Assembly: GCA_905178155.1 (NCBI GenBank) | Contig: CAJINV010000004.1 | Coordinates: 6,054,828 to 6,118,827 of the forward strand | Direction of reading: 5' to 3' | Source of the DNA: Amoebophrya sp. A120 | Lineage: Eukaryota > Protista > Dinoflagellata | DNA length: 64,000 nucleotides | In this document: positions 1-64,000 of the stretch, one piece after another | How the letters are laid out: each line of letters starts with the position of its first letter | How positions within the stretch are numbered: position 1 is the stretch's first letter | Translations under genes and position numbers: made by a program | The notes under the pieces: generated by a model | Told to the model about the DNA's origin: nothing | The model's database searches: none | The model's input: the letters and a program-made list of their open reading frames with translations, nothing else

Positions 1-3000
1 TTATTTTCCCGCTTGCTGCTGCTGCTCCTGCTGCTCTCGTTGACTGCGTTTTCTGACGTGTTTTGCGCCTGGTTGGTACACCTTCAGCTCCGGCGCGGCG
101 CCAGTGGGGGAAACTTGAAACGGCGGCATCTTTTCCAGGGTGTATTTTTTCACGTACGCGCGGAACTCATCCTTGTCAACGTAACCGGAGTCGTCGGTGT
201 CAAACGCCTTCCAAACCATCTCCCATTCGTCTGTTTGTTTGATGTGTTGTATGAATGGAAAAAAAAAAAAATTTAATTGCAGTTGGATAAGTACTAAGAA
301 ATGAACGCGCATGAGCAACAGGACAAAGCCCCAACGCAGGTTTCATGCGTGACGAGAAGCGCGTCCTACCCCTGATGCACGATGCGGCTTTTCGGAGTAA
401 CAATAAGACTAAAAGCAACATCGCCTCACGAACTACTGCTGCATCAGTTGTTGCAGCGAGAACAGACGGAAGCGAACATAGAAGTGCTGTTGAATTTTTA
501 CCAAGCGTCTCAGCCTTTTTTTTTCCAAATTCAGGCTGTAGAAAGAAGTTTGGTGGCGTAGTACTAATACCTGTGTTCATGTATTCCTTGTGTCCGAGGA
601 AGGCACGGATCTCGCGGAGCACGATTACCATCTCGTCGCGGTCCAGTTCGCCAGACAAGTCGTCGTTATGGATGGCAAATATGTCTAGGTCTGGAAGATT
701 GGAACTTGTGATGCTGTCTCTGGATTGTAGAAAAATCTGTGCTGCATGACCAGCAAGAGGAGTCCAGTTTGTGCTACGCGGGGAGGGCATTTGTCATGCG
801 AGATAGCCATTAGGAAGCCCTGTCAATATCTGTGATGCTAGCTCATGCATTACCGGCATCATGGGTCATGCAAAATATGCATGACAAACCTTGCGTTCTT
901 CCAGACCCAGATACTTGCAGTGGATAGTCGTCAAACCGCTGCCATATCTCGTCGATTTCCTCGTCTGTGTACTTCTTCAGGTCGTACTGGTGCTGTTATC
1001 GGTGTATTGTGAATTCTTGAAGATGATTAATAATTCAAAGTACTTGGTTTGCATTCGACGAGATACATACTCTGGCTCTTCTATTCGAAGAGGCAGAGGA
1101 GGTGGGAGGGAGAAGTGCTTTTATATCCTACTCATTTAAATGATCACCTCATCACTTCTCCGCGCAAAAGCGGCAAGGAAGCCGAGGGACGACCACGGAA
1201 AAAAATTATCATTAATATTGCAGCTTGTGTTAAAAATCGTGCTATCGCATTCGCAACTTCTGTTACCGTCTCTGTCAAACAGATAACTATCATACCCAAA
1301 ACTGCTCGAGCGGGAGTTCCCTGGACCTTTCGCGCAAGTACTCCTGGGACGACATTTCCGTGAGCCTGGAAACCGTCCGGTCCCACGCGAAGATTTCGTC
1401 CTGAATCGCCGTCTTTTTATCGATCGACGGATCCACGGTGAAAATCTCGTGCGCTTTCTTCTCCTATGGATTCCAAATTTCTCAATCTGGGTCTGCGTCT
1501 AGAGAGCTGAGACGTGTGTTCGTGTTGCTGACTTTACCTGAACCTGCATATATTTGGCAGGGTGGCCTCTGGTCTGGTATGGCAACATACCAGCATGACA
1601 AGTTTTCCTCAAGCTCTCGTCGTGCATTGGAATTCATGCGTATTTAGCATGACAAAGCTCCATGCAGCACGACAAAAAAGCTCGCCACTCCACCTGCACC
1701 TCTCCGTGCATCACAGATTTTGTCGCTGGTCCTCTCTTTCAGATACAAATCTGGCGTTACACACTGAGACCCAGACACAAGAAGATTTGCGTTCGATATC
1801 TCCGAGAGGAGGACAAATTTTGTCCTTTGTTCGTACAAGTTGTCGATCAATGTGATGAACCTCCTCACTTGGCTATCCTGAGGAAAAACGTCCCCACCAG
1901 ATTAGTCAAGTTGGGATCTCTGCAACACAAATCGAGAAGTTTTGGGAGTCACGCACACGAATGACAAGCAGGAGCTTCTCGCTGTTTATTTGTAGTGCCG
2001 GTTAATAGCAAGGGCAGCCGCATGACAAAACCTCCTCGTTATATGCTGTTTGCAGCATTACAAATGCCAAAACTACACGATTGGAAATTCCTGTAGTTGC
2101 AATTCTGAGTGACAACACCGGGATTGTTGGGACGTAGTTTCTATACTCAGGATATTGGTCGCGCTCCTGCAATGACAACGCCGGGATGTTGTCAATGAAC
2201 ACCGTGTGGAAGGTTTTCGCGATGGAAATGTAGTCCGCGGCGCCGAGCGGCTTGTCGCAGAGGTCCTTGAAATCGAAAAGCGCGCACTTCACCTTCTCGC
2301 CCATCTTTGGGATGTGCATCTTCCGCCCCTGCACTTCCAACTCCTGATCTTGTAAAACCTGATCCCTCGTCGCCCGATGGAACTTGCCGTCGAAAAATCC
2401 GCGCTGTTTCTCATCGATCGGGGAGAAAAAAACTTGGAACGCATCTTCCGCGTAGTCGGTTATTAGCCGGTAGTCGGTCTGGGAAGCGATGTCCAGGACC
2501 TCGCAGCGCTCTTTCAGCAAAGGGATGAAAGGGAGGAATAACGGCCGGTTTAGGCCGTTCAGATACCTGAGATGGAGAAGATCAAGGCGATAATCATAAA
2601 TTTGTGGTGAGCAGGTTGGTGGAGGAACGACTGAAGCACACGAAAATAGTTGTGGTTAGTTCCGTGCAAAAGAAAGATGTTCGACGCTGCACCAGCAGCT
2701 TGCCTCTGTCTCTCTACGGGAAAACTTAAGACCACGACTTACATCAACTGCAAAGTACCGACCGGTAAATAATCTTTTAAGAACTACGCACATAACAATG
2801 TACAAATCCTCCGGCGGCCGGTTACTGGTGGAGACTACGACCGCGCCCTTTTGGAAGAGGATCGAAAAGAGCTGCTTCATAATCATGGCGTCCGAAATGT
2901 GGGTGACTTGAAACTCGTCGAAACAATACAGCCACGCCTCCTCGATCATGTCGTCCGCAATGGCGTTCATAATGTCCGCCTTGTTCTCAGCATTATCCCC

Positions 3001-5002
3001 GCTGGCGGCTTGCAGTGACTCCCGTTGGGCCTTCGCTGCGGTGGCCGACCATTCACTATCCGCCTTGGCATGCACCCCGGCAGAGCTGATGGTCTTCTTG
3101 TGGAGGCGGTCGTGCACCTCGATGAGCCACTCGTGGAAGTGCACGCGCCGCTTCTTCTCAATGTGGGTTTGCGTGTCGTAAAACAAATCCATCAGGAAGG
3201 ACTTGCCGGACCCGCGACTATCCTACGAGAAAACATAAACTAAGGTAGGGTCAGAAGTCTCTGTGACGCGGCTAGTAAGTTGTAGTAGACAACATGCAAG
3301 ACTGACAGCTAGTGCGCTCTATCAGCTCATCCCGCGGCCCATCATGCTGACCATGCATCGTGTTACGACTCAGGAGCACCACTTCTCATCAAGCGCATTT
3401 ATTTCAGGCACGAATATCTTTCTGCGCAGCCAGATGAACTTTCTGCTGCCAAGCCGGACAATTTTGCACTGTTCAACATCTCTGAAGAGACCAAACACTA
3501 ACAAAGTTTTTTTCCCGGATAACAACCGCCCCAAATGTAGAGGCCCGTCGGGGCGGTAAACTTCTCGGGCGCGCCGGCGGGGGAGGCGGGCTCGGGTTTG
3601 GCTGTTTTTCAATATATTTTGAATGTAGTTGTAAAGATTGAGATTCACGTTCACCATTCCAGTATTGGAATCAGACAAGATGAAGATGAACATGAAGAAG
3701 TACGCCTGTATTAATTTCGCTTTCGCTGTTTTGGGATGCAAATGGGTGAAAAAGCAGTGCACTAAAGTTTCCCTCAACGTCACCGCGGAAGCAAGTACCC
3801 GCTCCTCCTCCGCCGAATAAACTTGCAAAAAATCCTCCTCCGCCACTGCCACTGGCTGGAGGTGACGACGCCGCAGGGCTGGCAGCGGGCGCTGGCGTGT
3901 ACCCTTTTATCTTTTCCGCGAGCTCCTCGAGTCGCGCCACGATTACCTGATTTTCATGTGTTCTAAATTCCTCTGTGTCAGTCTATCTTTTTCTTTACAG
4001 AAACAAAGCATCAAAAATAATTTGTATTGCAAGTACTACTAGGAGTACGGTATTTGCAATGCATACATGGAATGTACCAAAAATACCTTTTGGTTCGGGT
4101 CTTCGTTGATCTTTCCCTTCGCCAGCAGTTCGTCATAGGTCGCTTGTGGCGCATATGAAAGTGCACAGCTCCCCCCGACCCTCCCCCTCGTTTGTCATGC
4201 AAGGTGCCAAATCGTCCACGACCTGTTTTTGAACCGCACGTCGTCACCATCTTCTTGGCAATGCTTGCATGACACGTTCCGGAAGTTGTAGCCGAAACAG
4301 TTCACTAGAATCGAACAACTTCAAGTCGTTGTCTTGTACTAAAGCTGCAACGTTGCCAGAGCTTGCATTCATTCTTGCAGCTGTGGATGCCAACTACAAC
4401 AAATGAGGGGGAGGGGGTGAAGTAGTTGTGCACTCGAATAGCCCGAGCCCGGCGGTTGCGCCACTTGTTGGAGAGGCTGAAGCGAAGCCTCTCGAAGTCG
4501 TCGTCGTTCTCGCGCTGACGGTACAACAACTACTGAGGCTGCTAGAGGAACCACTCCTCGAAGAACTGTTCCTGCACGAAGTGGACGAGGAGCTCAAGCT
4601 CTGGACGAGTTGCGTTGATGATGTGGCCATTGTTCTAGCACTTCTACTCAACGAGTCGAGCTCGAGCGGCCTCGCGGCCGTTTTTATCTTCCCTTGACGC
4701 GTAGTAGACCACGTTGCAGCGCCACGACTTGAAGATGATGTGCTGGACACGGAGGGCGTCGCGGGTGAGCAAGGTAGTATTCTACTTTGCGCCACAACAA
4801 ATCGTCCTGGAGGTAGTGCATCAATTGCAATCTTCCCAGGAAGCTGCCCAAGCCCTTGTGCAGGAGAGGTGGTGGTCCCAAAGCTGCTGCAGGAGCCTCT
4901 TGGTAGCAGTACGATCTTGTTTACTGCGCTGGTGGTGCTGGTCGTGCGGCTTGTTACCGACGTTGCCGCGCGGGCGCGGGCGACCCTCGAGGCTTGCTGC
5001 AT
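1..5002 (-). CDS. AFG1: AFG1/LACE1-family mitochondrial ATPase with C-terminal EF-hand pair (multi-exon)
   Basis: Reconstructed motifs: GLYIWGGCGSGKSFLMDLFY (Walker A), RRVHFHEW, CFDEFQVTHISDAM (Walker B), TSNRPPEDLYLNGLNR, RDQVRRFITLIDNLYE, DEIFAWDRTVSRLTEM. GT-AG intron 993-1295 joins it in frame to EF-hands DDDLSGELDRDE and DTDDSGYVDKDE (intron 231-570). Stop at 1-3. The Arg/Ser/Thr-rich N-terminus resembles a transit peptide. Five TA-bounded elements must be removed. Confidence 0.88.
667..926. mobile_element. Introner family A
   Basis: TIR tatggatggcaaatatgtctaggtctggaag / cttccagacccagatacttgcagtggata; DR gtcgt; removal restores EF-hand FDDDLSGELD. Confidence 0.92.
1465..1798. mobile_element. 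Introner, degenerate family A-like
   Basis: tatg...gata ends with tctgggtct / agacccaga cores; DR tctcc; removal gives LLSEKKAHEIF in frame. Confidence 0.85.
1874..2154. mobile_element. Introner, singleton TIR type
   Basis: IR tatcctgag...ctcaggata plus acgtccc/gggacgt; DR ttggc/ttggt; removal restores RDQVRRFITLID. Confidence 0.85.
3219..3521. mobile_element. Introner, degenerate, inside Walker A
   Basis: tatcc...ggata ends; DR gcgac/acaac (3/5); removal restores WGGCGSGK. Confidence 0.8.
4154..4440. mobile_element. Introner family B (degenerate)
   Basis: tatgaaagtgcacagctcccc / gttgtgcactcgaata; DR gcgca/gcccg (3/5); removal gives LGPQATYDELLAKG. Confidence 0.82.
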
Positions 5003-6906: not shown

Positions 6907-9900
6907 TTATTCGTGGTAATTGATGGATCTGATGTCCATCGTGTTTGCCGAGGCTATCTCCTTGTCGCCTTTATTTTTTCCAGATTTTTTCGATGACCTT
7001 CGGGCATCGGCTGCACCGGGTTGTACGGATGTATTAGTAGCTTCCGCAGGACTCTTTTCAGGAGCAGGTCCTTGGTGAAAAAAATCGTTGTTGAAGACAC
7101 CACCCTCGCCGGGATTGTATCCATTGCAAATAAAGTATCGCACAACTCGTACTCGAACTCATCGTAATCATTCATGACAAATCTGGCGTACAAATCCCAA
7201 TTCATATCCTTCTTGAGAAAGTCATCCTCATCCTTACGCGATTTCATATGGTACCAATAGTACTACTTCTAGTGCGATACTTTTATTCTGCATAGCTTGT
7301 CGGATGGTGCAATTGTCAGCTGAGTAGTCAGGTTGTTCATCATCTTCGTGGGCCCGCCACTGCTGTCGGACTTGTCGGAGGACTGCGAAAGAATCTGCAT
7401 CCGACTCGAGTGCCTCGAAGTTTTTGTGTTGGAGTTGTCGAGACTTTTGGAGGCCTTCTTTGAAGATGACTTTGAGGACTTCAAGTCGGTTTTTCTGCTC
7501 CTCGTAGTTCTGGCCGCGCCAGTATGGATTGCAAAAATGTCTGGGTCTGGAAGATTGCAACTTGGCCTGCTAAATCCGAATCATGCAAAAATCTGTGTTG
7601 CAAGAGTGCCAAAAGCTGTCCACTTTCGACCAAGTTGGGAGGGAGTTTCTCATGCAGGATAGGCATGAAAGAGACCTCACAGACTCTGCCATGCTAGGTC
7701 CCGCATTCCATACCTCAAGGGTCATGGAAAACATGCATGACAAGTTCACACTCTTCCAGACCCAGACACTTTTGCATTTCATAGCCAGTTGCGGTCGCCT
7801 CGCCCCCGCTCATGGGAATGGAGGTGACCTGCAGTTTCGCGGGCCCCGCCCCGGAGGTCTATGAGAGTGCACAACTTCCCCTCCCCCTCAATTCCAATTC
7901 TATGGCAAAACCAGCAATACAAACACCAGCACACACGGAGCCTTTGCATGACAGGTTCTTCTTCATACGCCAAGAAGTGTAGTACACCACGTACTTGTTG
8001 GACTCCTTCATCCGAAATTTGTCATGCAAACAGTGCTACTCGGCAGCAACCGGATTTGGAATTTTGCATCACAAATGAGGGGGGGGTTGTGCACTCTCAT
8101 AAGGTCTCGGAGACGTCGGAAACGTCCTCGGATTCCCAGTCGGTTACGTACATTGCGTCGAAGACCGAATTATCAGATGCAAAAATGTCTGGGTCTGGAA
8201 GGATGCAAGGTTTGTCATGCAACTCATCGAACACAAAAATGGTCTGGAATGCACCCAGAAGCGTCACAAATTGCGCAAGAGTTTTTTGATGCCTAGTTCG
8301 CATGAGAAATTGGCCCTTTGCGTGGCAAGAATTGGGTAGCGTTTGCCATTCATGCAACCCAGATTTTTGTGCGTTTCGGATTTAGCATGACAAGTTGCTC
8401 TCTTCCAGACCCAGACATATTTGCAATGCATACGAATCATCCGACGATGTCTCGGCGCGGTCCAACACCGATTTCCGATGCAATTTCGCTTCCTCCTGGT
8501 CGGCGGCATTGGCTGCGCGGAGAAAGTCGGCGGAGTACTCCGCATAATCCGCAGTGGAAAGTTCACCACCTGGTGCTGTGTTGTCGCTGAGAACTACCTC
8601 TTGCTCGCCATAACCCGACGCAATTTTCTTGGCTTTTTTCTTGGCTTTTTTCAGCAAGAAACCCATCACCTCCTCCACCGTTTCGGTGCCCCCGAAGCCC
8701 CAGCGGTGCCACGCCTGCTCATCCTCGGGAAGGGTGGGGGGAGGGATATTGATATTGTTGTTGGCACTCACCTTGTTGTCCCGCGCAGGTGGTTCACTAG
8801 ATTTTCTGGGCAGAGAAGTTGTTGTAGTCCTCCTCGCGCTCGCGAGGATCTTTGCCAATTCTTGTGCGTACAGTGGCGAGAAGTTGTTGGCTAAAAGTTG
8901 CGCTCGCGCAAACTCTTCCGTGGCCACAACTCCCTTCTGCCCGGCTTTGGCGCCGACTTGCCTGCGGTTCCTCTTCACCTTCAACCGTTTCTTCAAAAAC
9001 GCCTGCATCTTCCACGGGTCCCGCACCTTCCCAGGCTCGCGGCGGTCTTGCATCTTCATTTGTTTCAAAACCAGCTGGTCTTGCTCCGCTTCGGCCGCCG
9101 GCAAGTCGTCCACCGAAGCCTGCAGTAGTCTCCCGGGCTCCACAATGTGCCGCGACAACTTTTTCGCGTAGCTGCGAGTAAACCCGACCGCGACAGCCAC
9201 CTGCTCCACTTCCCCGAACTCCGGCACGAGGCTCTCCGCCACCACGGTGAGCTTCATGCGGCTAGTACTCTCCTTGTTGTTCTCGTCAGCAGTACGCCCG
9301 GTGAACCACGAGCTCAACCGGTCGAAGAAGTTTTCCTGTTCCTCCGCCGGGGCGGCCTCCCGGCGCTCCTTGGCCCTCCGCCACTTCAGCAGCTATCAAA
9401 TGCAAATATGTTGTCTGGGTCTGGAAACTTGTGATGCAAGAAAGGAAACAGAGAGCAGACTCTGATGCGCTGCCGCGCATGGCAAAATTTTCCGTGGTTC
9501 TGAGTTGCGTACTCCGCATGAGAAACTGCGTTTTTGCATGACAGGCACGAGGAGCTCTTTGGCTTTGCGGCCACGCAATACAAAGTTCAGGGTCATGCTG
9601 GACTAGCATGACAAATCTCGCAAGCTCCCAGACCCAAACATATTTGCAACTCATAGCAGCCCGTTGCGCACGACGGCCAGGGTCTGCGCCGAGCCCGCGA
9701 ACCCCCGCCTGCGCAACAGCTCCTTGTCGATGTCCGCAGTGTCTTCGGTGACGACCGACTTGGCCGGATCCGCCGCGGGGTCCACCAGTTCCTCCGCCAG
9801 GTGGTGCGAAAACCCCGGGGTGAAGCCGGTGAGAACGAGCGCGCTTTCCACCGCCCCAACCACGCTGGGGCGCGGGGGGAGGGATGCCGCGTAGTCGTAG

Positions 9901-12570
9901 AGCAGGTTCTGGTCCTTCATTTTCGCCTGTCGGAACTGCTTTTCCATGAAGTCCGCCAGCAATTCCTCCTGCTCCTCGTCGTCCAAGGTTTCCTGACTCG
10001 TGGGCATCACCATCACCCCGTCGTCATCCGCGCCAAAGCCTTCCCCCTTGCCGCTGGCCATCACGGCGGGGAGGACCTTGTAACTAAGAACCTTGTTCGT
10101 CCCATCATCCTCCTGCTCGTCCCCGGGTGGATGGTCTTGATTTGTTAGCCTACCCGTTCCGCTCGATGGTGGCAGAGCTGCACCTGTCGTGTTTAATATC
10201 ACTTGTTCCTCCTTTATGCCCTCCTCGTCCTCGTCCACCCATCCGGTGGGCCGATCCGGGGGAATCAGGTTGATCCTCATGGTCTTTTCCTGGGATTCGT
10301 GCGAGGGGGGCTCTGGGAAGGCGGTGCTGGAGGGCCGGTTGGGTTGCTGCCGCTTGGCCGACACCAGGCACCCGCGCAGCTCCGCCACACACTCAATCCC
10401 GCCGAACTGGCCCAACTCGAACAACGCGTCCTTGTCGTCCTCCGTGGGCGGCGGCGCCATTTTGGTCGTGAGACCGGTTTTGGGTTTCACCATGCGGTCG
10501 CCGAGCTGCGCGGCCAGCGCGGTGGCGTAACTCGGCTGCAACCCGGCGCGTTTCAGCTTCAGCTCGAACACGCGTGGTCCGGGGTACTTGGGCGCACAGC
10601 TCCCCTTCAATTTCCAGCCCCGCTTCTGCTTGAACCGCGGCCCGAAAAACTTCTATCAAATGCAAATATGTCTGGGTCTGAAAGAATGAAACATCTGTCA
10701 TGCCTGTCTGGCATGACGGAAGAGTTTGTGATGCGTGTCCAAGAAGACAGAGAGAGAGATCCTTGATGCTCTTGTCATGACAATAAAACGCAGGCTGTAT
10801 TGCGGAAAGCGCAACACTAAACCGCGCAAATATTTCTCGTGCTTGGCTGTGCATTAGAGAGCATTTACTATTCGCGACTATGCATTACAAGTTTCCAGAC
10901 CCAGACACATTTGCAATCCATAATTTCACGGCCTCCGCCACGCTCTCGAAGCCGCCAAACTTCACCCGCTGCATGGCGGCGAGGTCTTCCACCTTTTGTG
11001 GCGCGGGCAACGGGTTCAGTTCGAGCAGATCTCCCTTCTTGTCGTACTTGGCGAGCGCCTGCGCGAACTGGCGCGCGTAGCCCTCGCTGAAGCCGGAGGC
11101 GATACCCACCTCGAACGCTTCATCCTCCGAGGGCGCATGCTTGGAGGACTTGACCTTCACCTTCTTGTTCCCGGGTAAGAGCAGCCCGTTCATGCTTCCC
11201 ACAGCTGCGGCGGAACCCCCTTGGTCTCTTTTACCTCGGTTCCGCGCGTGGTAAAACAATCCGACGGCCAACCCGAAGGCGAGCAGGCACGCCACACAGA
11301 TCAGCACGCAGGCGAACGCACTGCACGGCAGGCACCAATCATCTTCCGGCGGCGCGGCAGTTGTGGAGGTTGTATTGGTGGAATCGTACACGTTCTCCAC
11401 ACCTTCCGGAGTGCCATAGGTTAAGAGACCGGTTGTGTTCTTCGAGTCGTTCATCGCCATTCCCGCGAGCGCGACGCTCCGCGTAGTGCTGGTCGTGGAG
11501 GTCGTGCTAGTCGTACTATTCTCCGCGGCTTTTGTGGTCATGCCATCCAGTAAATCTGGGTCCGTCCGCCCGCGGTTCAGCTCTACTGCCGTTGTCGAAG
11601 AAGTAGTCGTCGTCGTATTCATATCAACTTTCGCCGTCGTTGTGGTGTTTGTCGGTGGGGTCCCACCAGGTTGCGACGACGGCGCCAGGGAGGAAGCGGG
11701 GGCTGGGCTGGTGGTGGGTGGTACAACAGCTTCTGTCAAGGTAGTTGTAGTAGAAGTTGTAGTACTGCTTGTTGTAGTCGTTGTCGACGTGCTAGTAGAA
11801 GTCGTCGTTGAAGTAGAGACCACTTCTGTTGTGGTCGTTGGCGCTTTCGTCGTAGTTGGCGCTTTCGTGGTAGTTGGGACCTCGGTTGTCGTGGTCGTTG
11901 TGGTTGTCGTGCTAGATGTTGTGGTCGTAGTTGAGGTCGTAGTTGAGGTCGTAGTTGAGGTTGTAGTTGAGGTCGTAGTTGAGGTCGTAGTTGTGGTCGT
12001 AGTTGTGGTCGTAGTTGTGGTCGTAGTTGTGGTCGTAGTTGTGGTCGTAGTTGTCGACGTAGTAGTCGTTGTAGTCGTCGATGTTGTAGTTGTCGTGGAT
12101 GTTGTTGTCGTTGACGTGGTCGTCGACGTCGTAGTTGACGTCGTAGTTGACGTCGTAGTTGACGTCGTAGTTGATGTTGTCGTCGACGTTGTCGTCGACG
12201 TTGTCGTTGAGGTTGTTGTTCTTCTCAGGTCCGTCTTGTCTCCGAAGCAGCACGTTTCCGCGCACTCCCAGGCATTGTACACGCCTTGCGCCCCTTTATT
12301 ACATCGAACGATCGGCGGATCCTTATCCAAGCTCCAGGCGTGCGCGTGGATGCCCTGCGCGTGGACGCAACCCCCGTGTCGCCACCGGGCCGTGAAAAAG
12401 AGCGGTGTGTCCGGCTCGTTGTCGGGTTCAAATTGGTTGTATTCCGCCTGCGATACCTCGACCCAATCGCCCTTCGTCCCTTCGGACAACCGCTCAAATT
12501 TCTTGAACTTGTTTTCGAACCGCTTTTCGACCACCTCGTCGTCGCTCAACGGGTTCGCATCCCACCATTC
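6907..12570 (-). CDS. Large Thr-rich mucin-like single-pass membrane protein split by six introners
   Basis: ORFs 10885-12549, 9651-10610, 8382-9317, 7269-7484 and 6907-7143 join in one frame once six elements plus one DR each are removed. Poly-Thr stalk, TM segment (ACVLICVACLLAFGLAVGLFY), recurring G[F/L]xxx[Y/F]Axx[L/F]A and FGGxExV motifs. 5' end unresolved; candidate GT-AG intron at 12571-12625. Confidence 0.8.
7118..7294. mobile_element. Introner family C
   Basis: tatccattgcaaataaagtatcgcac / gtgcgatacttttattctgcata; DR gattg/gcttg; frame restored. Confidence 0.83.
7523..7783. mobile_element. Introner family A
   Basis: Family A TIR; DR gccag; frame restored. Confidence 0.93.
7860..8101. 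mobile_element. Introner family B
   Basis: TIR tatgagagtgcacaac / gttgtgcactctcata; DR aggtc; frame restored. Confidence 0.93.
8171..8432. mobile_element. Introner family A
   Basis: Family A TIR; DR cgaat; frame restored. Confidence 0.93.
9394..9655. mobile_element. Introner family A
   Basis: Family A TIR; DR gcagc; joins NGLL to KWRRAK. Confidence 0.92.
10654..10922. mobile_element. Introner family A
   Basis: Family A TIR; DR acttc/atttc; joins EAVK to FFGPRF. Confidence 0.9.
11735..12220 (-). repeat. Coding minisatellite (12-bp units such as GTCGTAGTTGTG/GAG/GAC) encoding poly-Thr/Ser
   Basis: Tandem gtcgtagttgag, gtcgtagttgtg and gtcgtagttgac units; translates to (TTTS)n. Confidence 0.9.
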
Positions 12571-26669: not shown

Positions 26670-27300
26670 GTCTACAGATATAAAAAAGGCCAAATCAAAA
26701 TCTACTGTAGGTTCCTGCAGTAGATATTATAGCGCATCCGAGTAAAAAGGCGAAAGCTTCTGTAGGCTCTCGCTCTACTGAAGTAGATTTTTTCATTTTA
26801 CAGTAGGCGCCTTCAGTAGAAAATTTCTGCAGAAGGGTCTACTGCAGATTTTTGCGTTTTGGTTGGACATGGACGACTTATTTAGTCATTCTTCAGTAGA
26901 GTGGCCTTCAGAAGACTCAAAACCTTCAGAAGCGTTGTCCAAAAAACTTGACTTTTTGCCATTTTTGAAGCAAAGAGGTCGGCTTTTGTGGCAAATTTCT
27001 ACAGTAGGTAAAGTAGTCGTTTTCAGTTTCTGAAGGTTGAAAACTTTCAGAAGAAATTTCTTGAGGCCACTTTTTTTTCTACCACTGAAGAAAAAAAAAT
27101 GACTTTCTTCTGTAGGAGTAGGTCTCATCTACGTTCAACAGTAGATCGACTCCTAGCCCTACTGAAGATTTTTTCAAAATTAATTACTTTTTGCAAACAG
27201 CAGCGACATCTGCTTGAAGTGTTAAGCTTTTTTTGTGGGCCTGTTTTTTCAACCTTCAGAAGGTATCTGCTGCCTTCTGTAGACTCTTCTGTAGTAGAAC
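26670..27300. repeat. Intergenic cluster of the quasi-palindrome CTWCWGWAG; possible non-autonomous DNA element
   Basis: About a dozen irregularly spaced copies (ctactgtag, cttctgtag, ctactgaag, cttcagtag, cttcagaag, ctacagtag) plus partial matches. Confidence 0.65.
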
Positions 27301-35555: not shown

Positions 35556-36507
35556 GTTTGTGCTGCAGAAACCTTCACCTAGTTGTGCCCCAGATAATTG
35601 TAGCAGCATTTGGTTCAAGACGTAATGCAACGAATACGAAAACGGCCTCGAGCGCTGTTTTTATTCTACTTAACGTGGCAGGAACATGTTGACCCTGCTG
35701 TCTCAGTCTCTCGACACAATCTTTTTCTTCTGACTTCCTCGACGACGGTCACTACGGAAGAGAAGCATTCGACGACAATTTGGTACATCAGCTCACAACT
35801 TTGTACGTAGTTCAGAGCTCCACAAGAACTGAAGTACCATTCATCTTGGTCCGACACGAGCACGACAGAATTTGCATTGCTAATGCACACTTTGACTTTT
35901 CAATGTATGTATCAAGAATAGCAAAGCAGCATCAAGCTTTACATATTTCAAACAAAACCGGAATCGGCCGGCAACAGACGTTGTTACATGATTTTAACCA
36001 ATCTTTGCAGTATAATTTTCATCATTTTGCATCTAAGTTGTATATTAGTAAAGATGCTCGATTTCGTTGTCTGCTCTAGTACCAGAACAGGGCCAACGCC
36101 AACTACTATGACAAGTAACATTCAAGAAAATTCAATCTGATACTGTAGTAGAGGTACACTCCAGCTCTAGCGATAGTGTAAGAATAAGACGACCACGACG
36201 AAGACGATGAAAAGCAAAAGTGGTTGTTTTACATAGAAAGCAGCTCAAAAAACTACATTTTTCTCTAGCGGTTGATTTTATCTCTCGACTCATTTTCATT
36301 TATATTTGCGATTGCGTCTTTCGATTTCTAACGAACATGTTGCAACTACAGGCACGTGGCAGACAAGGCCTGCTGTGCTAGTGTATGATGATTTGATGAA
36401 AAGTTGTCCAGTAAAGACATTTCGTGGACCACTTGCATTTGCGGAAAGGGAACGACCTCCACCTCCACCTCTTCCTCTGTACGATCACGAAGAATGACCC
36501 AGGATTT

Positions 36508-39234: not shown

Positions 39235-39267
<33 letters not shown>

Positions 39268-46483: not shown

Positions 46484-47505
46484 CGGGCACAGGAGGAGGA
46501 GATAGAAACCGGGGAAGGGGAAGGGCTAGTAGTACACTTAGCACGCGAGTTTGTGGTTGTGATTTTTACCTTCCCGGGCGGCGTGACGTCTGATGAACGC
46601 CGTCGAGGTCCACCTTTCAAGCTCGAGCAACAGCACAGCAAGGCACTTCCAAAAGCGTGAAGATCAAAACTAAGTGAGTATCAGTATCTTTCAACGGGAT
46701 ACAAGGGGAATAGTTCTCAATGATAAACAAGACCTGACGTACGCTCTTCAAAAAAACTATAGCTGGGCCGATATCGGCGCACAGCAGATCCGGATGCAGA
46801 TCTATTTTGCCTGTCGATTTTTGCTGGTCGACTTTTGTTGCGCCAGAATATTATTGCTTTTGCTTCACCATCTCAATTCTACTATAATCGTCTGCCACAC
46901 GTCGCGTGGATATTCGTCAAACGAACTGAGACCTCTAACCCGGATTGATACAATACCATCACCACCTTCTCCGAGAACGCTACGATAAGTAGTGCTCGTC
47001 ATCACGACACAAAAAAGACGATCCTTGTCATCACGATCCTGACCCGCCCCCGGCTACAATTACGAAAGCAAGACGAGCAACATTCAGCTAGAAAAACACT
47101 TTATTTCCCACGACCCGCCGCTTCGCGATTTCTTCTTCCCCAGAGCTGTCACAGTTTCGCTTTTGTTTCGAAACACACGATAAAACATCTTCGAGGAACT
47201 TACAACTGGCAAGAACCGACCGACACCGAGAACGAGTGGCCTTTACTTTCAAAGAAGAAGAGGTGCGCTCATTACTTTTCTCGCTGTGGCTCAGTGGCTC
47301 CTTGTGGTTGGGCCCTTTGCCTTTATTCCATCCGTTCTGATTCTTTTTCTATTCATTTCGAATTCTTCAGACTACTTGCAAAGCACGGTTGTTGTACGCG
47401 GTTTATTCATCGACGCGAAACCAGTCGATGAAACAATTCTGCAGTTTCCGTTCATTATGAAACGCAAAATGTATCTTAACTCCTTCTATTATCATCAAAA
47501 TTCGT

Positions 47506-53500: not shown

Positions 53501-54347
53501 ACAAAAGTGGTCCTGTGCCTATCCTCGCAGCTCCTCCATTACCAGTAAGAAAGCTCCTTGTTGATGTCTTCTGGAACAAAGTTGCACTCGTGGCTGAAGA
53601 GGAACTAGCTAGCGTGAAGCCGGTCGCTGGGCGGGAGAGCGGCAGAAAGGAACTGTCCCCAGGTCCTCGTGCAGATGATGATCCAACCCCTCCCACACCG
53701 CAATCATTCATTTCTGATGTCGTATCTACTACTTCTGCACGTAGTAGTTTCGTCGCCGGGGGCCCAAGAGCAGCAAAATTATCTTCGTCAGAATCGTCCG
53801 CGAAAATTTTTCGCAGCTTCTCCTGCAGCAAAACTTGGCGCTTGGTGTTGGTCGGTGCTTCATCACCATTACGATTACCCGCTCCGCTGGTGGGATTGAT
53901 GCCACGACCTTCAACCCCAGAAGCTTGAAGAAATCCACCACCACCACCGCGGCGCTCCACGGCTTTTCCCGAGGCACAGGCGAAGGAGGACGCGGTGGTC
54001 GGCTGGGCGAAAAAGGTAGTACAAGAAGACGTCGCCGATGCATTGGGATTGGGATTGGCAAGCGTGCCTGAAGGCGATGACGCCGGCTCCTGGTCGTGGT
54101 GTGCCTGAGAGGTAGAGGACGTCATAGAAGTTGTAGGTTTTGCTGACGATCCCGTTCCCGCGGTTTTGAAAGAACCGGAAAAGTAGCATGATGAGCTTTG
54201 TAGTTTATCCTTATTGCCGTTTCCCGCTTGAAGATCGGCCTCATCTCCCGGTTTCATCTTGCCAATTGGTGGGAAGTTCATCATCGAGGCTGAGCCACTG
54301 CCGATGTCGATGTCCACTTGGCAATCTGCTTGTGGTCCTTCTGGCAT
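47506..54347 (-). CDS. BRCA2: BRCA2 homolog (BRC-like repeats plus OB-fold DNA-binding region)
   Basis: FxxA-type motifs (FKTAG, FTLAS, FQLAG) and LSEAARRRVAKIFED. Helical/OB1 signatures RRWDEE, SALRQLYEE, DDAGPLHLVL, LLTDGRYVMRARWD; then LESNS...KLGFTPRLPIPI...GLVPSIDVVVLR. Four elements are removed in frame; stop at 47506-47508. 5' end uncertain. Confidence 0.75.
47672..47851. mobile_element. Introner family C
   Basis: tatccagtgcaaaagtatcg / caatacttttacactgcata; DR aaacc. Confidence 0.9.
49529..49722. mobile_element. Introner family C
   Basis: Family C TIR; DR cagcg. Confidence 0.9.
50907..51184. mobile_element. Introner, degenerate
   Basis: tatccaaaggaaaaagtagaagaactgtgta vs reverse complement tatgcaagaaaaaaacaaaaactgtgta; DR only 2/5, but removal plus 5 nt gives SEERMSF in frame. 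Confidence 0.7.
51306..51613. mobile_element. Introner family F with 3-nt spacer before the DR
   Basis: Family F TIR ending cata at 51610, then taa, then DR tcgcg; frame restored. Confidence 0.88.
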
Positions 54348-56298
54348 TTTGGTTTTTTTCGCACTGTTGCTCCTACAAAATAGAATTTAGACGACGTACT
54401 AGCTGTGGCTGTCGGTGTCGGTGTAAGGACGAACAATAATAAACTACTCTCGAAGCTCCTACGCGCGATGACAAATTTGCCTTTCGCCACGTATCCGCCG
54501 GAAGTATTGACAATAGAAGCCATTTTGACAGAAGCAACATTTTCCTCTCTTCGATTTCGACAGCGACTCACATGATGACATCTTTTTTTTAAAGATCCTC
54601 GGGTCGCTCAACAACGATAGCGGTGGCCGACGAGGAGGCATGTGCCAGATTTTTGCTTGTTCTCTCCAGCGATATTAATCCGATCACGAAGAGGAAGAAC
54701 AGAAGAAGAAGTTTCCTTTCCGTAAGCAACTTCTTGCAGATGGACGACAGAAGCCGTTACTTCTTCGCTGCAATTTGAATTTCATTTTTTTCGCGGCGTT
54801 AAAGACAGTACATTTGACATTGTCATTTTCCAGAAAAAAAGTAAATAGTTCTGCTACTAGGTACCAGGTGAGATGAACGAGAAGTTGAGATGAACCTCCT
54901 GCGCATTTGTCATACTAATTGTAAAATCGTAATTGCTCAATGACGACCTTGCGGACTGCTACAAGGTGCCTCGCGGGATAAGTCAGAATAACTATAACGT
55001 TGTGCTTGTGCTATCATAATCATCAGAAAGGTGTGACTGTTGAGCTCAAAATCGTAATTTAGTCGTATGTGGAGAAAGAAGAAGATGATGAAGAAAATAC
55101 CTCAAGCTACAATCAAGCATTCTTGTCACAACACAGGTGCAGCCGGTCATGACAGAGAGTCGAGTCGTACTCGTTGTACAAAAAACTTCTACAGCGCAGC
55201 AAAGATCAGCTGAGAAGAAAAGTGATGACAGATGATAATGAAGCAAACCACATGTAAGCCTGCGAACCTGCTGTATACTTCCAAAAGGGAAGCAAATCCG
55301 AGCCAGAATGTGTGTATTCTCCATTGTCATGACGTCGAAATAAAATCGAAGTCGTATTGATTTACTTGGTGCTGTGCGTTGGTCTTGGTGCTACTGCTCA
55401 TATTGATTCCTCATAATGATGTTAATGGGTGCGTTTTCTAAACCTAAAGGTTTCAGGTCGTCTTTGGAGTTTCTCAGTTCTTGAAACCACAACTCGCAAT
55501 TCCACTCCGCAATGAAAATGCAAAGTGCGTTGCGGTAATATCCTGCAGGGGAAACTGAAGCTGAATGCATATTGGTGCATTTGTGGTAATGCGGTGGGCC
55601 CATACCATGACGATGACCCAATAAATGTTGCAAAGGGGAAAACAAAGGAGAAAAACAAAAACCACCCACTGAAAGCTGTTCGGCTAGGTAGCGAAACCAA
55701 TCCAGTACTTAATACATACTGCGCGCGCGGCGCACGTATTTTATATTACAGCGTCAAGTGCAATCAAATTGTATCTGATGTCGTTTAACTTTATTCTCAA
55801 AATGAGTTGTAAATTCGTGAGAAAAACGGCGGATTTCGATTCATCCAACAGTGTAAAACTTTTCTTCGTCATGCATCCAGGTCCAGCAGCGACACAACAG
55901 CGCAAAAAATGTCGGAAAAAGTACGGGCACAGCGCGCTCCCGATGTAGTTTCATGTTCATCGGAGGAAATTAAGATCATACTTTCACCCAGAGTTGGTCA
56001 GCCCAGCTTCTACGTCCCACCAACCCTAGGAGTGCCGGATTTTTTCGCTCAAAAGGGTTTGCTGCACATCAGACTAGGCTCCGATATGCAGCTGCTCAAC
56101 TTATGGTTAATATGACTTTCAATTCGTTCTCATCTTGAAAATGAACATGTCGTTTAAATTTGAAACCGCCTTGTACTTGTTACTTTTATCTATCGTTATT
56201 TTTCTAGTACGATTGAGGACCCAATTGTTTACTTGGCGCAAAATGCGCGTGCGTACAGGTACACCGTCGTTTGACAGTAGTTTCAACATTTCAGCCGT

Positions 56299-57334
56299 TT
56301 AATACTGCTGATACTGCTGGTTGTAGCCGTAGTATCCGTCCCAACCACCTTGACCTTGTTGCGGTTGCTGGCTTTGCTGGTCCCAGTTTTGCTGTTGAGC
56401 ATACATGTTGTTCGCCGGAACACCAGGCTTGCCGTATTGCTGTTTTGAATGTCATTCGAAAAACAAGTTTCCTCTGCTTACACTGCTAATAGATAGCAAA
56501 GAAAAAAGAAATCTATCACTTGCATCCGATAATACCGAGAGCGACGCTCTTTGTTGAGTGTATTCGTGAAGATCCAAATCCAATTATACCTGCTGCTGCG
56601 CATACTGTTGCTGCTGGTTCGGCTGAAACATCATGCTGTTTTGCTGCTGAGCCGGTTGCGCGGCCTGCTGCTGAGCGTACATATTCTGCTGTGCACTCGC
56701 CTGCTGCTGTGCGGCATACATGCTCTGCTGCTGCTGCTGTGGCGTTTGCCCGTACATCGGTTGCTGATGACCTGGCAACTGTTGCGGACGCGCAAATCCG
56801 GGCGCATTACCGTATTGCTGGTTGTAATTCGGCTGCTGTTGATTGTAATTTGGTTGCTGTTGCTGCTGCTGCGCATACTGCTGTTGTTGCTGCGCATACT
56901 GCTGCGCATATTGTTGCTGCTGCGCAGAAGTTGCCTGCTGTCCCGGTGGGCCGGGAGGTGCACCCGGGGCTGCACCCGGCATGGCAGCCCGCTGCTGCTG
57001 CTGCGCCTGCTGCACTTGGGCAGCCTGTTGTTGAGCAGCGTACTGGTTGTAGTACTGTTGCTGCGCTGCCTGCTGCGCCGGAGTCTGTTGTTGCTGACCG
57101 TAGAGTGGCTGTTGTCCGTACTGCGATGCTGTCTGCTGTGACAACTGACCGAAGCTGGACGTTGTGCTGCCCGGTGCCTGCTGCTGGAGTTGGTTCAACA
57201 AAGTCTGTCCCGGTTGCATCACACTCGTTGCCGGCGTCATCGCGCTTCCGATTTGCGAGGCCGCTTGCTGCTGCTGATGATGCTGTTGTTGGTGGTGCTG
57301 TTGTTGCTGCTGCTGATGTTGCTGCTGCTGTTGT

Positions 57335-57369
<35 letters not shown>

Positions 57370-60300
57370 TTGGTGCTGCTGTTGCGCAACTGCAGCCTGT
57401 TGCTGCTGATTGTACTGCTGATTGTTAGTGTAATTTTGTTGCGCCGTTGGGGCGGGTACACCTGCTGGCAATTGCGGTGTCTGGCTCGGGGGAGCTCCTG
57501 GAACACCAGCAGCTCCAGGGACTACGACGTTAGTGGTCGAAGCACTGCCTGCTGCACTACCCTGCTGATGTCCTAGTTGCTGCGCGGCACTACTATTGTT
57601 TTGCGGGGTTGCCATCGGCGTCGGCACCCCCGTCGGTTGCTGGTAACTGTGCGTCGCGCTTTGCGGGGTGGGGGTCGCGCCGGTCGTGTTCTGCTGCTGG
57701 TTATTAGTCCCGAACCCGCCAAGACTCGGGGTCGGCGCGCGGGACAAGTCGTTGGATTTTTTTCTGGCCTGTTGCTCGGCGGCGTACTTGGCCGCGGCAT
57801 TCGGGTCCAGCTTTTCCACTTGTTCGTCAAAGAATTCGATGATGACTTGCGCGGAGATCGGGTTCCTTTGTTCCGTCTTGCGGCCCCAGCCGACGAAGAT
57901 GTCCGCCGGCACGTCCTTCTTGGCCCCGGTGGCCTTCTCGGACCGCGGCTTCACCGACATGGAGACCCCGGCGATGTTCACGTAGACGCCGTCGCGAATC
58001 AGCTCCTTGCTGTTGCGAACCGCCTCGTCCTTGTCGGACCGCTGAAAAAACCAACAGAGCATGTCTCGGTGCCGCTCGTCTCGGAACGTCAACAGCGCGC
58101 AGCCAATTTCGGAGTGTTTCTTGGCGACCTGAAGACAGATGATTGTTGATCTTGTTTATCTAAAACTAAAACTTGTACAAGAGATTACCAAGCCAGGATG
58201 GATTCAGTACGTATAAAAATCAGTCCTCGCGGCGCACCACGCTTCGTCACATTTCATCACTCCTGAGTATTTATGAATGCCTTTCCTTTTAAACAGTCAC
58301 AAGTACAATGATGAACTAAAGTACGGTATTATACCATGTATTTCCCCTCTTTTTCCTCTGCTTTCCGATCTCTCTCGCCGCCGCCGCGCGTTCGGCCCTC
58401 GTCGCCGCCGTCCATGCCACTATTCCTGCGTTCCCGGTTCCCGTAGTCCTTGCGCTCGGACATCTGCATGCGCTCCACTCGGTCGTCCCTGTAGCTGAAA
58501 TCTGGTCGTCCAGACGATCCTTTGTTGTTCATGCCCCCACCACCTCCACGGTGGTTGTCGTTGTATCGGCCACCTCCCTTGTTGAAGCCTCCCTTGTTGC
58601 CACCAGCACCCCCCTGGTAGTCACCGGTATTGCTGTCAAACATGCCTCGCGGGTCGCTTGTCTGGGTGGGTGCGCGGCCCTGGAACCGGTCGGCGACGGT
58701 GGCGACGCCGGGTCGGTTAAAGTTGTTGTTCATGCCGTTCCCGGACGCGCTCGTGTAGTCCCGCCTCTCGCCGGTGTTCATATCGCGTAACCGACCCGCA
58801 TGCTCCGGGGCCACGCGGTCTTGCACCCTGCCGTTCATCACCATTTGCGTCTCGTGGCCGTGGTTCGGACTGTCGTGCAGGGAACCGTAATTCGTCTTGG
58901 ACGGACGGGGCTGTGACCAAAGTTGCCGATTTGAACAGATACGAAATCAAAAATTTTCATTTTGGTCTTCTAGGCAATAGTAAGTCTAACTAGATTCTTT
59001 GTATATCAAACCCAATGTGGTGCCCTTAAACATACCTGAAATAACTAAAAATGCGCTTAGAACATATCATTTGTACGCTGAAAGACTTCTTGCCCTTCTC
59101 CTCTCCTTGCAAGTCGTCCCATCCTGAGAGCACCTCATCGCCACCCTGTGAGTCGTTCGAAATTGCAAGAATCTATAAATGAAAATCTGTGTGTGCATTT
59201 TTATGCGATTTGAAGCACAAATAGTACGGATACTTTTCGTTTTCCGATCAATGCATACCATGGAAGCACCATTAGCACAGACATCCTCAAAGGCGCCGGA
59301 TAACTAGCGCAAGTACCTTCCCGTTGCTTTTTCCATCATTCTTCGGACCCTTCTTTCCCGCGAGCGGACCGCCGAATTTACTTCCGGCGTTTTTTGTTGA
59401 GGGCGTCGCGTTGAAGCGGTCGTACCCGTCCAGACCGGGTACCGCGCCGTAGTCGGGCGCGTCGTCGTACGCCTGAATGGGAGTTGAGATTGCAGTTTCG
59501 GCATGACAAAGCGAAATAAACTTCTCTTCAAAAATACTGCCTAGCATGGTATGCTCCAAGTTGGCGAAATTATTTGTGATGCATTTTGTACATCATGTTG
59601 TAAGGGAAATTTGTATTGCATAACATGCACGAAAATGATGATCCATACCTGCTTATTGGAAAGCGGCGACATCATTCCTTTCTTTCCGCCTGCTGGCCCG
59701 CTTCGCTCTGGACTTCCTGGGGGCGATTCCCTACTGTTTTTCCCTTCCACCATGCTGGCCTGCTTCGCAGCGCGGGCTCGCTCCATATTTGATATGTACC
59801 CCGGACCCTTCTTGCCGCCCATGGCTTGCTGGTGGGCGGGGACTGCTCCTGATGGAGCAGCTCCTGCGCTCAGACCATCGTCGTTGTTCTTGGTCATCTT
59901 TCCACCCTTGTTGGCCCCCCGTTCCGGACTACTGTAGTCGCCTCCGGCGCCCTTGCGGCTCGCAATATGGTGATCTCGCTCATCCTGATTGTACGGGTCA
60001 AGAACTACTTTTCCGCCCTTCTTGTTCATTTTCCCATAAGAAGTATGATCCGCCGCGCCGCCCTTCTTGCCGCCCTTGTAGTTGTACCCGTCGTCGTCAT
60101 CCGTCGTGTGCAAGTGCACCTGCCCCAACTTACTGGCGGTGGACTCCTTGCTCTGTGTGGGGCTGTCGCTGAGCTGCGCGGCTGCGCGGGTCAACTCGCC
60201 GAGCGTCTTGGGCCGCTCGGCCTCCGTGATCTCGCGCCAGTCGTTCAGTTCGCGGTCCCAGATGTGGTTGCGGTACCACTCCTCTTTCTCTTTTTTTTTG

Positions 60301-61466
60301 GCTTCTTTTTTGGCCTTCTTTTCGTCGAGCTTGCGCTGCTCCTCCTCCTCCCAGGCCTTGCGCTCCTCCTCCTTCTTGCGCTTCTTCTCCTCCTTCTGAA
60401 GCCGCTTTTCCTGGTAATTGTGATAAGAATTTACACGACAAACATGCACTCTTGTATCATTATCAAGCCCAAGCAACATCTTGGAGCCCTGATTTGTGTT
60501 TCACGAATGCGAATGACAAAAAGAGAGCTGATAGATACAGTTCTAGTTGAAGTTTCCTTCAGGAGCAGGACAGTAAAGTACATTACTAGGTAATAGTTCT
60601 CTTGCGATACAAGCAGTCGTGAAATTGTTGAAGAAAATACCTCCTCCCAATCCGCCCACCATTTTTCCTCCGCGGCTTTCTTCGCTGCCTTTTTTTCCGC
60701 CTTTTCCCGCTTCTTCTCTTATCACAGAGAAAAAAGCCTGCAGATTTGTAATGCAAATATAATGATAAATAATCTGTCATGGGCGGACCCATAGCATAGC
60801 ATATGCAATACAGTTTTTTTTTAAAAATTTTCTGTGTATTTATTTTTGCATTACTAATGATGTGACCTGCCGGCTTTTTTCTGTGTGATATCTCTTCCTC
60901 TAAACGCTTCTTCTCCTCCTCTTCCTGTCGTTTTCTTTCCTCGACCGCCATCTTCTGGCGCTCCTTCTTGGAGTATGACAGGGCACAACTCCCCCTCACC
61001 CTCATTTGCGTTGCATGAACAGCAACACAAGCGCGGGCAAAGAAAAAGATGCAGCTTTTGCATGACAAATTCCTAGGAGATTGTAGTGCTGTTTCGGATG
61101 CCGGAATCTGTCATGCAAACAGTACTAACAGGCAAAGGGTGGATTTGGTATTTTGCATTACTAATGCGGGGGAGGGGGAGTTGTGCACTTTCATATGGAG
61201 ATTACCGGTTTCCAGGCGTCTGTCACCTCGGTTTTTTCCGCCAGGATGGCGTCCACCTGACGCTGCACGGCATCCTCGTCGCAGTCGCACTTTTCCACGA
61301 TCTCGCACAGCTCGTTCTTGCTGTACGCAAGGTCCTGGAGCATGGGGTACAGGTTGTCCACCAATTTCTGCCCCTTCGCCGGGAGAAAATCGTACAAATT
61401 TTGCTTTTTCCCATCGTCGCCAAGAATCTCCAGCACCCGCCGGCTCTGCGCCACGCGGTCGTCCAT
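56299..61466 (-). CDS. Protein with UBA-like N-terminus, coiled coil, Gly/Lys-rich region, RRM-like domain and Gln/Tyr-rich prion-like tail
   Basis: ORFs at 61191, 60586, 59541, 59287, 58329 and 56584 plus a last exon ending YQQY* at 56299 join through two introners and several GT-AG introns. Domain names assigned by eye. Confidence 0.72.
57265..57420 (-). repeat. Coding polyglutamine (CAG/CAA) tract
   Basis: (ctg/ttg)n on the plus strand. Confidence 0.9.
60720..60890. mobile_element. Introner, singleton family M
   Basis: tatcacagagaaaaaagcctgcag / ctgccggcttttttctgtgtgata; DR tctct. Confidence 0.9.
60974..61195. mobile_element. Introner family B
   Basis: Family B TIR; DR tggag. Confidence 0.93.
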
Positions 61467-63181: not shown

Positions 63182-64000
63182 CTATGCCGACGCGAGTAGA
63201 AACTTGTTTACCAGATCCGCATATCAAATGTAAAAATGTCTGGGTCTGGAAGATTCCGGAATTTGTGATGCATGTTTTCTATGATCCGTGACGCATGTAA
63301 TGCATGATCTAGCATCACAGATTTTTAGAGGCCTTCCTGATGCCTATTCCGCATGAGAAATGACCTCTCCGCGTAACACAAACTGGACTCCTGATGCTGC
63401 TCACGCAATACAGATTTTTTTGGAATCCAAAGACAGCATGACAAGTTGCATTCTTCCAGACCCAGACATTTTTACATTTCATACCGCACAGTCGACGGCC
63501 GGGACCCCCGGCGTTTTCAGCTTGTCCATACTTTTGCACCCGTTGAGCACCTATCAAATGCAAATATGTCTGGGTCTGGATGGATGCCATGCACATTTTG
63601 CATGACCCCTGATGTCTGTGATGCATGCCCTAGCATCACAGGTTTTGTGAGGGATTCCTGATGCCTATACCGCATGAGAAATGCCCTCGCGCCGTGGCAA
63701 AAACTGGACATCTTTTGCTGTCCATGCAATACAGATTCTTCTAGAATCCAAGTCCAGCATCACAAGTTGCGTCCTTCCAGACCCAGACATATTTGCAATG
63801 CATAGCACCAAGGCGTGCACCATTTTCACGTCCTTCATCACGTCCCACTGTGCCGCAGAGACGCCCAACGTGTTGATCGCGAGGGTTCTCTCCACGTACG
63901 TCGGGTTCCCCTGCATGCTTCTCAACTGCTGGTTCGTCAACTCCGCCGTGACATAGTTGCCCGGGTAGCCGAACAGGTTGGCCGCGCCGACGTGCCCGTT
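63182..64000 (-). CDS. 3' end of a hypothetical protein (continues beyond the window)
   Basis: ...VKMVHALV-LNGCKSMDKLKTPGVPAVDCA-DLVNKFLLASA* in frame after removing two family A elements. Confidence 0.7.
63222..63483. mobile_element. Introner family A
   Basis: Family A TIR; DR ccgca. Confidence 0.94.
63552..63804. mobile_element. Introner family A
   Basis: Family A TIR; DR gcacc. Confidence 0.94.

Follow-up and report, generated by a model that had tools for sequence, protein, structure and literature searches.

In a 64,000-nt stretch of the genome of the parasitic marine dinoflagellate Amoebophrya sp. A120 (contig CAJINV010000004.1, positions 6,054,828 to 6,118,827; this whole stretch is called the window), 54 short hairpin elements with TAT…ATA ends lie between positions 667 and 63804, and they are non-canonical introns, removed as the element plus exactly 5 flanking nt. 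They are the introner elements of Farhat 2021 (PMC7789003); the system is already known, and the elements, their hairpins and their splicing have been published. What we found in addition concerns the place of the cut, which in all elements likely lies at a constant distance from the ends of the hairpin. We lean, though only slightly, toward the reading that these introner elements lose exactly 5 flanking bases with them, likely at a fixed position set by their own ends and likely through the host spliceosome.

All elements share one geometry. After curation across the whole window their median length is 251.5 nt (range 109-356 nt), and they cover 12,896 of the 64,000 bases (20%). A preliminary description, made from the sequence alone, had counted about 58; the elements proved real, their number settling at 54, and its figure of 43 copies with a perfect 5-bp direct repeat (DR) abutting both ends is unchanged. 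To guard against circularity, we also selected elements by their terminal inverted repeats (TIRs) only, ignoring the DR. This gave 45 calls, of which 36 had an exact 5-bp DR and three more were inner registers of perfect-DR copies, and none of the 45 had a DR of 4 or of 6-9 nt. Each of five shuffles yielded 0-2 TIR pairs, and a motif-free inverted-repeat scan found short paired ends all along the window. Among the 108 ends, T stands first in 108, A second in 107, T third in 107 and C or G fourth in 103 (the end motif was partly a selection criterion for this tally), which gives a consensus of TAT(C/G), about six loose bases and a run of A. We also used a second assembly, represented by 153 loci (L001-L153, contigs JACKZZ01…; 524 kb) fetched by a TIR pattern scan, none of which is orthologous to the window. 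When the first 4 nt were hidden from the detector, TAT…ATA was still recovered in 281 of 323 calls from the window and the fetched loci. The TAT…ATA-DR geometry proposed earlier is confirmed. The 324 elements of the second assembly, chosen without regard to the DR, include 237 with a perfect 5-bp DR and 54 with one mismatch; other DR lengths were almost absent (4 nt in one, 6 nt in none, 7 nt in one and 8 nt in one). Family A has the same ends there, and longer copies of 457-1031 nt contain no large open reading frames (ORFs).

One element, 50907-51184, whose DR is badly decayed, was missed in the first scans and was added via an RNA contig. Two candidates were dropped: the pair 3908-4085, whose DR arose by chance and which overlaps a GT-AG intron, and 33558-33814, which is coding sequence. 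The GT-AG intron 3944-4086 holds a decayed remnant of family C (4019-4065), possibly an element that became an ordinary intron or came to rest inside one. Weak inverted repeats at 26680-27010 and 55713-55947 have neither TAT…ATA ends nor a 5-bp repeat.

The elements interrupt reading frames and do not look like ordinary introns. Stops in all three sense frames are present in 48 of the 54, as the preliminary description had indicated, and length plus 5 is divisible by three in only 16. Its statement that consistent GT-AG ends are lacking also stands, given that GT-AG was available at any of the six DR registers in only 4 of 44 pairs tested, the registers differing between them (one of the 44, 3908-4085, was later shown not to be an element). 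Seven multi-copy families comprise 43 of the 54 copies, the other 11 being singletons, and both orientations occur in 7 of the 7 families (4:4 in family C). Being short, TIR-bounded, flanked by a target-site duplication (TSD) and devoid of coding capacity, the elements have the features of miniature inverted-repeat transposable elements (MITEs); transposase-sized coding capacity was found in none of the window elements. Their predicted folds are stable, with z below -3 in 46 of 54 (8 shuffles each), and the first four terminal pairs are predicted at p>0.5 in 38 of 54.

Removal takes the element and 5 nt. Long minus-strand frames were restored only if the element plus k nt was taken out with k equal to 2, 5 or 8; at these values both flanks stayed open for 100 codons or more at 26 of the 54 junctions, compared with 3-8 junctions at other k (the scan was run on a list still containing the 3908 pair and one end, at 3219, off by one). 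Two published A120 gene models could be mapped onto the window: an AFG1 exon matches the protein P0001, named Amoebophrya sp. A120, at 99%, and an EF-hand exon matches the A120 protein P0121 at 100%, which upholds the link to Amoebophrya introners that had been drawn from the sequence. In the mapping of P0121, 21 of 22 elements are removed with 5 nt and the remaining one lies inside a GT-AG intron; in that of P0001, 4 of 5 are so removed. Taken together, 25 of the 26 exonic copies in the two models follow the rule, and the claim that the frame is restored at every exonic copy has to be narrowed only for the copy at 1874. In the second assembly, where the 324 elements were examined for frame on both flanks, a loss of +5 (mod 3) was required in 45 of 50 confident elements, 5 more having been dropped for strand conflict.

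Contigs of the set X3 show the same length. They are presumed to be RNA, and they do skip GT-AG introns. The comparison covered 32001-52000, and junctions were taken from 16 pieces among those listed. Record 12 omits 49524-49722, that is exactly 194+5 nt and no other letters, and record 13 lacks 10 nt in addition to two elements (50907 and 51306). Three further pieces end where a +5 removal predicts (32501, 40291 and 47851). The junction that the preliminary description expected in RNA has been seen directly once, as the 194+5 nt skip, with a putative pair at 50907/51306 in addition. Two raw RNA runs, X8 and X9, gave 12 and 2 reads over 32001-52000, all of them partial, and therefore do not represent the A120 strain. 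Absence of elements from mRNA at junctions other than GT-AG was accordingly found at one whole junction, at two inferred ones and at 25 of 26 copies in the gene models.

Bases surviving at mutated repeats point to a single cut position. A perfect DR hides the cut site, thus only mutated repeats can reveal it. Wherever a mismatch at DR positions 1-4 is non-silent and homologs are at hand, the residue shared with the homologs comes from the upstream copy, in 6 of 6 cases. These are Asp at 1874 (position 1), Cys in the Walker A motif at 3219 (in 8 of 8 homologs), Gly at 4154 (in the 3 closest homologs), Val at 37407 (position 4, in 2 of 2 homologs), Met at 42869 (shared with A25 only) and Tyr at 44375 (in 2 of 2 homologs). 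As for position 5, the lower piece of X3 record 13 ends at 50902, so that this base comes from the downstream copy at 50907. The upper piece of the same record starts at 51611 and keeps the 3 nt that separate the 51306 element from the displaced DR; the cut is therefore not at the DR match. The one position that fits these eight copies would make the intron N-TAT…ATA-NNNN on the sense strand, i.e., a cut at -1/+4. When this is set against its mirror image, all six telling copies (3219, 4154, 37407, 44375, 50907 and 51306) follow the direction of transcription, an agreement which by our own arithmetic has a chance of 1 in 64 if the cut is tied to the orientation of the element. At the proposed position GT-AG occurs in 1 of the 54 window elements, and in the second assembly GT occurs in 66 of 187 and AG in 21 of 187, near background. 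A purine bias at DR position 5, apparent in 8 of 8 copies of the second assembly and in 1 of 4 in the window, was judged unconvincing.

The elements probably descend from one transposase class. A motif, GCATnACAA (GCAT[G/C/T]ACAA), occurs in 48 of the 54 copies and across all families; 102 of its 108 hits in the window fall inside elements, which make up a fifth of it. It mostly occurs as two inverted copies, each 30-60 nt in from one end of the element, a symmetry more readily explained by a DNA-binding site than by a branch point, as which the motif was also considered and rejected. We thus regard it as a candidate transposase binding site. Since the ends are common to all elements and the motif to 48 of 54, the families do not appear unrelated, as had been supposed, and a single transposase class is likely, in agreement with that part of the preliminary description. 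A 4.2-kb autonomous candidate in L067 resolved into two separate elements that share their repeat.

The repeat is left over from insertion and is not the guide of removal. Where the DR is displaced or mismatched at 2-3 positions, the element plus 5 nt is lost all the same, and the earlier account needs changing in that removal does not depend on a matching repeat. The guides that remain would be the symmetric ends, through their sequence and through the hairpin they form. Regarding the machinery, 8 of 9 ordinary donors examined read GTA[CT] (the interval 32944-34197 comprises several introns, so that the donor and the acceptor at its ends entered the count independently of each other), and the proposed 5' site N|TAT matches them at +2 to +4. 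This resemblance to host GTAY donors slightly favours the spliceosome, of which A120 has a nearly complete set, with no U1 RNA detected (PMC7789003). The preliminary description had combined its single transposase class with a dedicated excision system; for the latter we see nothing here that shows it. In the ordinary introns 2563-2799, 3944-4083, 43312-43895, 44758-44957 and 38259-38579 the boundary sequence is often repeated (GTAY donor; AG then GT), and a polypyrimidine tract is evident in none of them.

A plausible course of events may be proposed. An integrase-like DDE transposase, of the Ginger or IS3EU/GingerRoot kind, would insert miniature elements with TA…TA ends into exons, in either orientation and with duplication of any 5-mer. 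In the transcript, the predicted hairpin would bring the two ends together. The piece cut out, 5 nt longer than the element as observed, would include 1 nt ahead of the left UAU and 4 nt beyond the right AUA; the mRNA would accordingly keep bases 1-4 of the upstream repeat copy and base 5 of the downstream one, which is the sequence before insertion. Finally, and this is the weakest step, the 5' cut N|UAU might imitate positions +2 to +4 of the host GUAY donors, the hairpin serving a spliceosome without detected U1 RNA as a substitute for G+1 and the 3' AG.

Several observations weigh against the removal of these elements by the spliceosome at one fixed position. At 1874, P0001 keeps 18 nt of the TIR, i.e., 6 extra residues; these are missing from 8 of 8 homologs, however, which makes +5 the expected product there, and in one of the two placements open to it the junction agrees with a different start, N|TAC, combined with a regular +4 end. 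A transcript-guided pipeline produced the published models, which count as second-hand evidence, and the RNA evidence amounts to one whole visible junction and one inferred pair, both from contigs that are presumed to be RNA. Of the frame calls in the second assembly, 5 of 50 disagree with +5. Our interpretation of X3 record 13 requires an unprinted middle exon of 115 nt placed at 51186-51300, the downstream origin of DR position 5 comes from this one contig, and +6/+4, +8/+2 and other splits over the two elements are also free of stops; codon usage of the hidden exon favours the +5/+5 frame (+16 versus -12 and -13). In the second assembly the 7 usable DR mismatches are nearly all silent and lend no support to the position. 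The first four terminal pairs are predicted at p>0.5 in no more than 38 of the 54 elements. TA ends being a transposase trait, TAT may resemble GTAY by chance, and there is no branch-point signal, GCATnACAA not being biased to the 3' side (140 versus 131 of 240). Lastly, the search for transposase ORFs bounded by these TIRs, suggested earlier, yielded none in the window or in the 153 fetched loci, and Farhat 2021 likewise found none in A120 (PMC7789003).

It might be argued that the same -1/+4 cut is made outside the spliceosome, by a dedicated system such as a hairpin-measuring endonuclease with a ligase, or a separate machine like that of Euglena. We hold this to be rather unlikely, but it deserves consideration. 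The lack of any constraint on +1, -2 or -1, the lack of polarity and of a branch-point signal, and the stable hairpins (median z -7.1) would all be at home in such a system; moreover, the Euglena code is a spacer counted from a paired motif, its authors suggest non-spliceosomal factors (PMC12501133), and circular excised RNA has been reported there (review PMC11282704). On the other hand, the near-complete spliceosome of A120 (PMC7789003), the alternation of ordinary and element introns within the same genes and the match of the 5' cut to ordinary donors at +2 to +4 are harder to reconcile with it, and the aberrant junction at 1874, in the placement with a nearby N|UAC start and the usual +4 end, points the same way.

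Two other explanations do without a position set by the ends. If the DR guided removal, any of six positions could be used, or the junctions could be jumps of reverse transcriptase between short repeats. Hairpins flanked by short repeats are known template-switching substrates, and in the 43 of 54 copies with perfect repeats the position is invisible. However, 48 of 54 elements have stops in all frames inside conserved proteins which align without gaps across the junctions, which means that the cell itself must remove them; two or three DR mismatches do not keep a copy from being removed as +5, and at 51306 the RNA junction does not follow the displaced repeat. We thus consider a DR-guided process very improbable. 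Still less credible is excision from DNA in one life stage, with the elements never being spliced, in the manner of the TA-bounded eliminated sequences of ciliates. The TA ends, the transposon geometry and the alveolate host would suit it. Yet in all 6 copies that are informative the direction of transcription determines which repeat bases are kept, while elements lie both ways, which points to an event at the RNA level; contigs of the set X1 carry three elements intact in a single 6011-nt piece (X1 is possibly the window's own source and hence not independent); and both TAs are removed here, unlike in ciliates. Ciliate excision leaves one TA behind. We retain removal from the transcript at a fixed position, likely by the spliceosome, as our preferred reading.

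The individual elements are all given on the minus strand, with a perfect DR unless otherwise stated, and those traced through a published model are removed with 5 nt. In the AFG1/EF-hand gene, mapped with P0001, they are 667-926 (family A), the singletons 1465-1798, 1874-2154 (weak TIR, one DR mismatch at position 1; 18 nt retained) and 3219-3521 (mismatches at positions 3 and 5; it splits the AFG1 Walker A), and 4154-4440 (family D, positions 1 and 3). An ORF of 1400 residues is restored across six elements, namely the singleton 7118-7294 (one mismatch at position 4), 7860-8101 of family D, and 7523-7783, 8171-8432, 9394-9655 and 10654-10922 of family A, the last with a mismatch at position 4. 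One of 489 residues is restored across four, 16020-16228 (family G), 16292-16553 (A), 16660-16965 (H) and 17287-17537 (E), and a GTPase ORF of 686 residues across six, 18953-19220 (A; the sole copy with GT-AG at the proposed cut), 19272-19500 (E), 20027-20207 (singleton), 20617-20826 (G), 20919-21079 (C) and 21137-21414 (A). The FSH1 gene contains 23858-24179 (family F, one end TAC), and its removal restores 347 residues. Two elements interrupt an ORF of 1284 residues, 28247-28527 (family A, mismatches at positions 1 and 3) and 32276-32500 (family D, one end TCT), next to which the RNA contig piece ends at 32501.

The gene of P0121 holds 22 elements. Family A is found at 38803-39070, 40297-40548 (next to the RNA contig piece ending at 40291), 40834-41109, 41558-41809 and 43610-43864, the latter within the 584-nt GT-AG intron 43312-43895 of the P0121 mapping. 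Family C is found at 37949-38103, 38606-38753, 40626-40777, 42869-43013 (mismatches at positions 1 and 4), 44375-44524 (positions 3 and 5) and 44564-44719; family D at 41899-42119, 42213-42463 and 45196-45435; family E at 41157-41391, 42597-42835 and 43941-44181; and family F at 36533-36853 and 39413-39730. The singletons are 37407-37762 (positions 4 and 5), 37795-37903 (the shortest element, 109 nt) and 39194-39363. Further along, removal of four elements yields an ORF of 1967 residues at 47509-54386 (minus strand): the singleton 47672-47851, where the RNA contig piece starts at 47851, 49529-49722 of family C, which is the one skipped in record 12, and the two of record 13, the singleton 50907-51184 (3 of 5 DR positions mismatched) and 51306-51610 of family H, whose DR is displaced by 3 nt from one end. 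An ORF of 214 residues spans the singleton 60720-60890 and 60974-61195 (family D). Near the window end, 63222-63483 and 63552-63804, both of family A, are known from their sequence only.

All traced genes lie on the minus strand, which matches the unidirectional clusters described for Amoebophrya (PMC7789003). The AFG1 ATPase and the EF-hand region (203-995) form one gene (4-5002, minus strand), a fusion common to many dinoflagellate homologs; P0001 appears to run into its last intron, its C-terminus being unlike that of all homologs. The gene labels proposed earlier are supported by Pfam for AFG1, EF-hand and FSH1. Stretches of the 1967-residue ORF resemble motifs of the BRCA2 OB1 region, a label for which neither Pfam nor PDB gave confirmation. 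The exon 9657-10652 matched no A120 model and gave three weak hits; one of them, P0126, is a relative by its repeat domain and stops short of covering the informative junction at 7118. Low-complexity coding repeats are present at 11483-12268 and 56390-57430 (a Thr-rich tract with a 12-bp period and a Gln-rich tract), and 34500-35460 is a multi-copy sequence with variant contigs in X1 and X3, which is not a TAT…ATA element.

More than 60% of A120 introns are removed without GT-AG ends, by a mechanism stated as open (PMC7789003 and a 2024 review). A single cut position, if true, predicts which base survives at each mutated repeat, where the junction of an excised lariat or circle lies, and which ends are bound by a transposase or splicing factor; gene models would be corrected as well, because inside a perfect repeat the choice of splice site is arbitrary and makes the splice motifs look more varied than they are. 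We think it fairly probable that a single code, 5'-N|UAY…hairpin…AUA-NNNN|-3', independent of orientation and repeat, underlies the "variable" splice sites of A120, and that tens of thousands of introns stem from one transposase class with TA ends and 5-bp duplications and are harmless because they are removed tracelessly by a hairpin-measuring machine, be it a spliceosome without U1 or a new enzyme.

The closest known system is that of the A120 introner elements themselves. As described (PMC7789003), these have TIRs starting with TAT, seven loose bases and a run of A, DRs of 3-5 nt, a hairpin and a mean length of about 240 nt; their removal is supported by RNA-seq, and the splicing mechanism is called unknown. 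The window elements come from the same strain and agree in the TAT start of the inverted repeat, the loose nucleotides followed by at least three A, the short DR, the hairpin, the similar length and the grouping into families. They differ in that DR length and position and the splice sites vary in that account, whereas here the DR is of 5 nt only (43 of 54; 237 of 324) and one cut position is indicated. As the preliminary description acknowledged, the phenomenon is not new (PMC7789003; Gozashti 2025, PMC12130899). TA ends with a 5-bp duplication are also already in print for one A120 family, as dataset sd07 of the latter lists family 38 as Ginger, "5-bp TSD, TA/TA Termini"; for the other families, within 41 of the 58 rows, it gives automated TSD calls of 2 to 6 or NA and several splice-site modes, and states no common rule. 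IS3EU and GingerRoot elements share TA..TA termini and TIRs with ours and have an integrase-related DDE transposase, but their TSD is usually 6 bp (PMC10045372), a length found in 0 of 45 window calls and 0 of 324 elements of the second assembly, and for this reason we do not file the window elements there.

Among unusual introns, the nonconventional ones of Euglena are alike in their pairing MITE-like ends, the fixed spacer from a paired motif, the lack of GT-AG and the coexistence with ordinary introns (PMC12501133; PMC11282704). Their code, however, is N3-CDG…CH'G-N5-6|R (PMC12501133), as opposed to N-UAU…AUA-N4 here, they have a purine at the exon start and a reported circular product, whereas no purine rule holds here, and the lineage is unrelated (PMC12501133; PMC11282704). 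Fritillaria borealis likewise has introns derived in bulk from transposons with TIRs and TSDs, attributed to an altered U2 spliceosome; the preferred ends are AG-AC/AT and the target TAC there, while here the target 5-mer and the terminal dinucleotides, except +2, are free (PMC11282704; bioRxiv 2025.08.15.670264). The GT/GC…AG ends of U2-type introns are not those of our elements either (GT-AG in 1 of 54; AG in 21 of 187, equal to background). In the relevant passages of the literature, including PMC11282704, PMC11453091 and bioRxiv 2025.08.15.670264, we found no mention that A120 elements are all cut at -1/+4; such a rule, or part of it, could be contained in figures S19-S25 of Farhat 2021 or in the other 17 of the 58 dataset rows. 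What is new here is thus a testable refinement of the splice rule of a known system, namely one cut at -1/+4.

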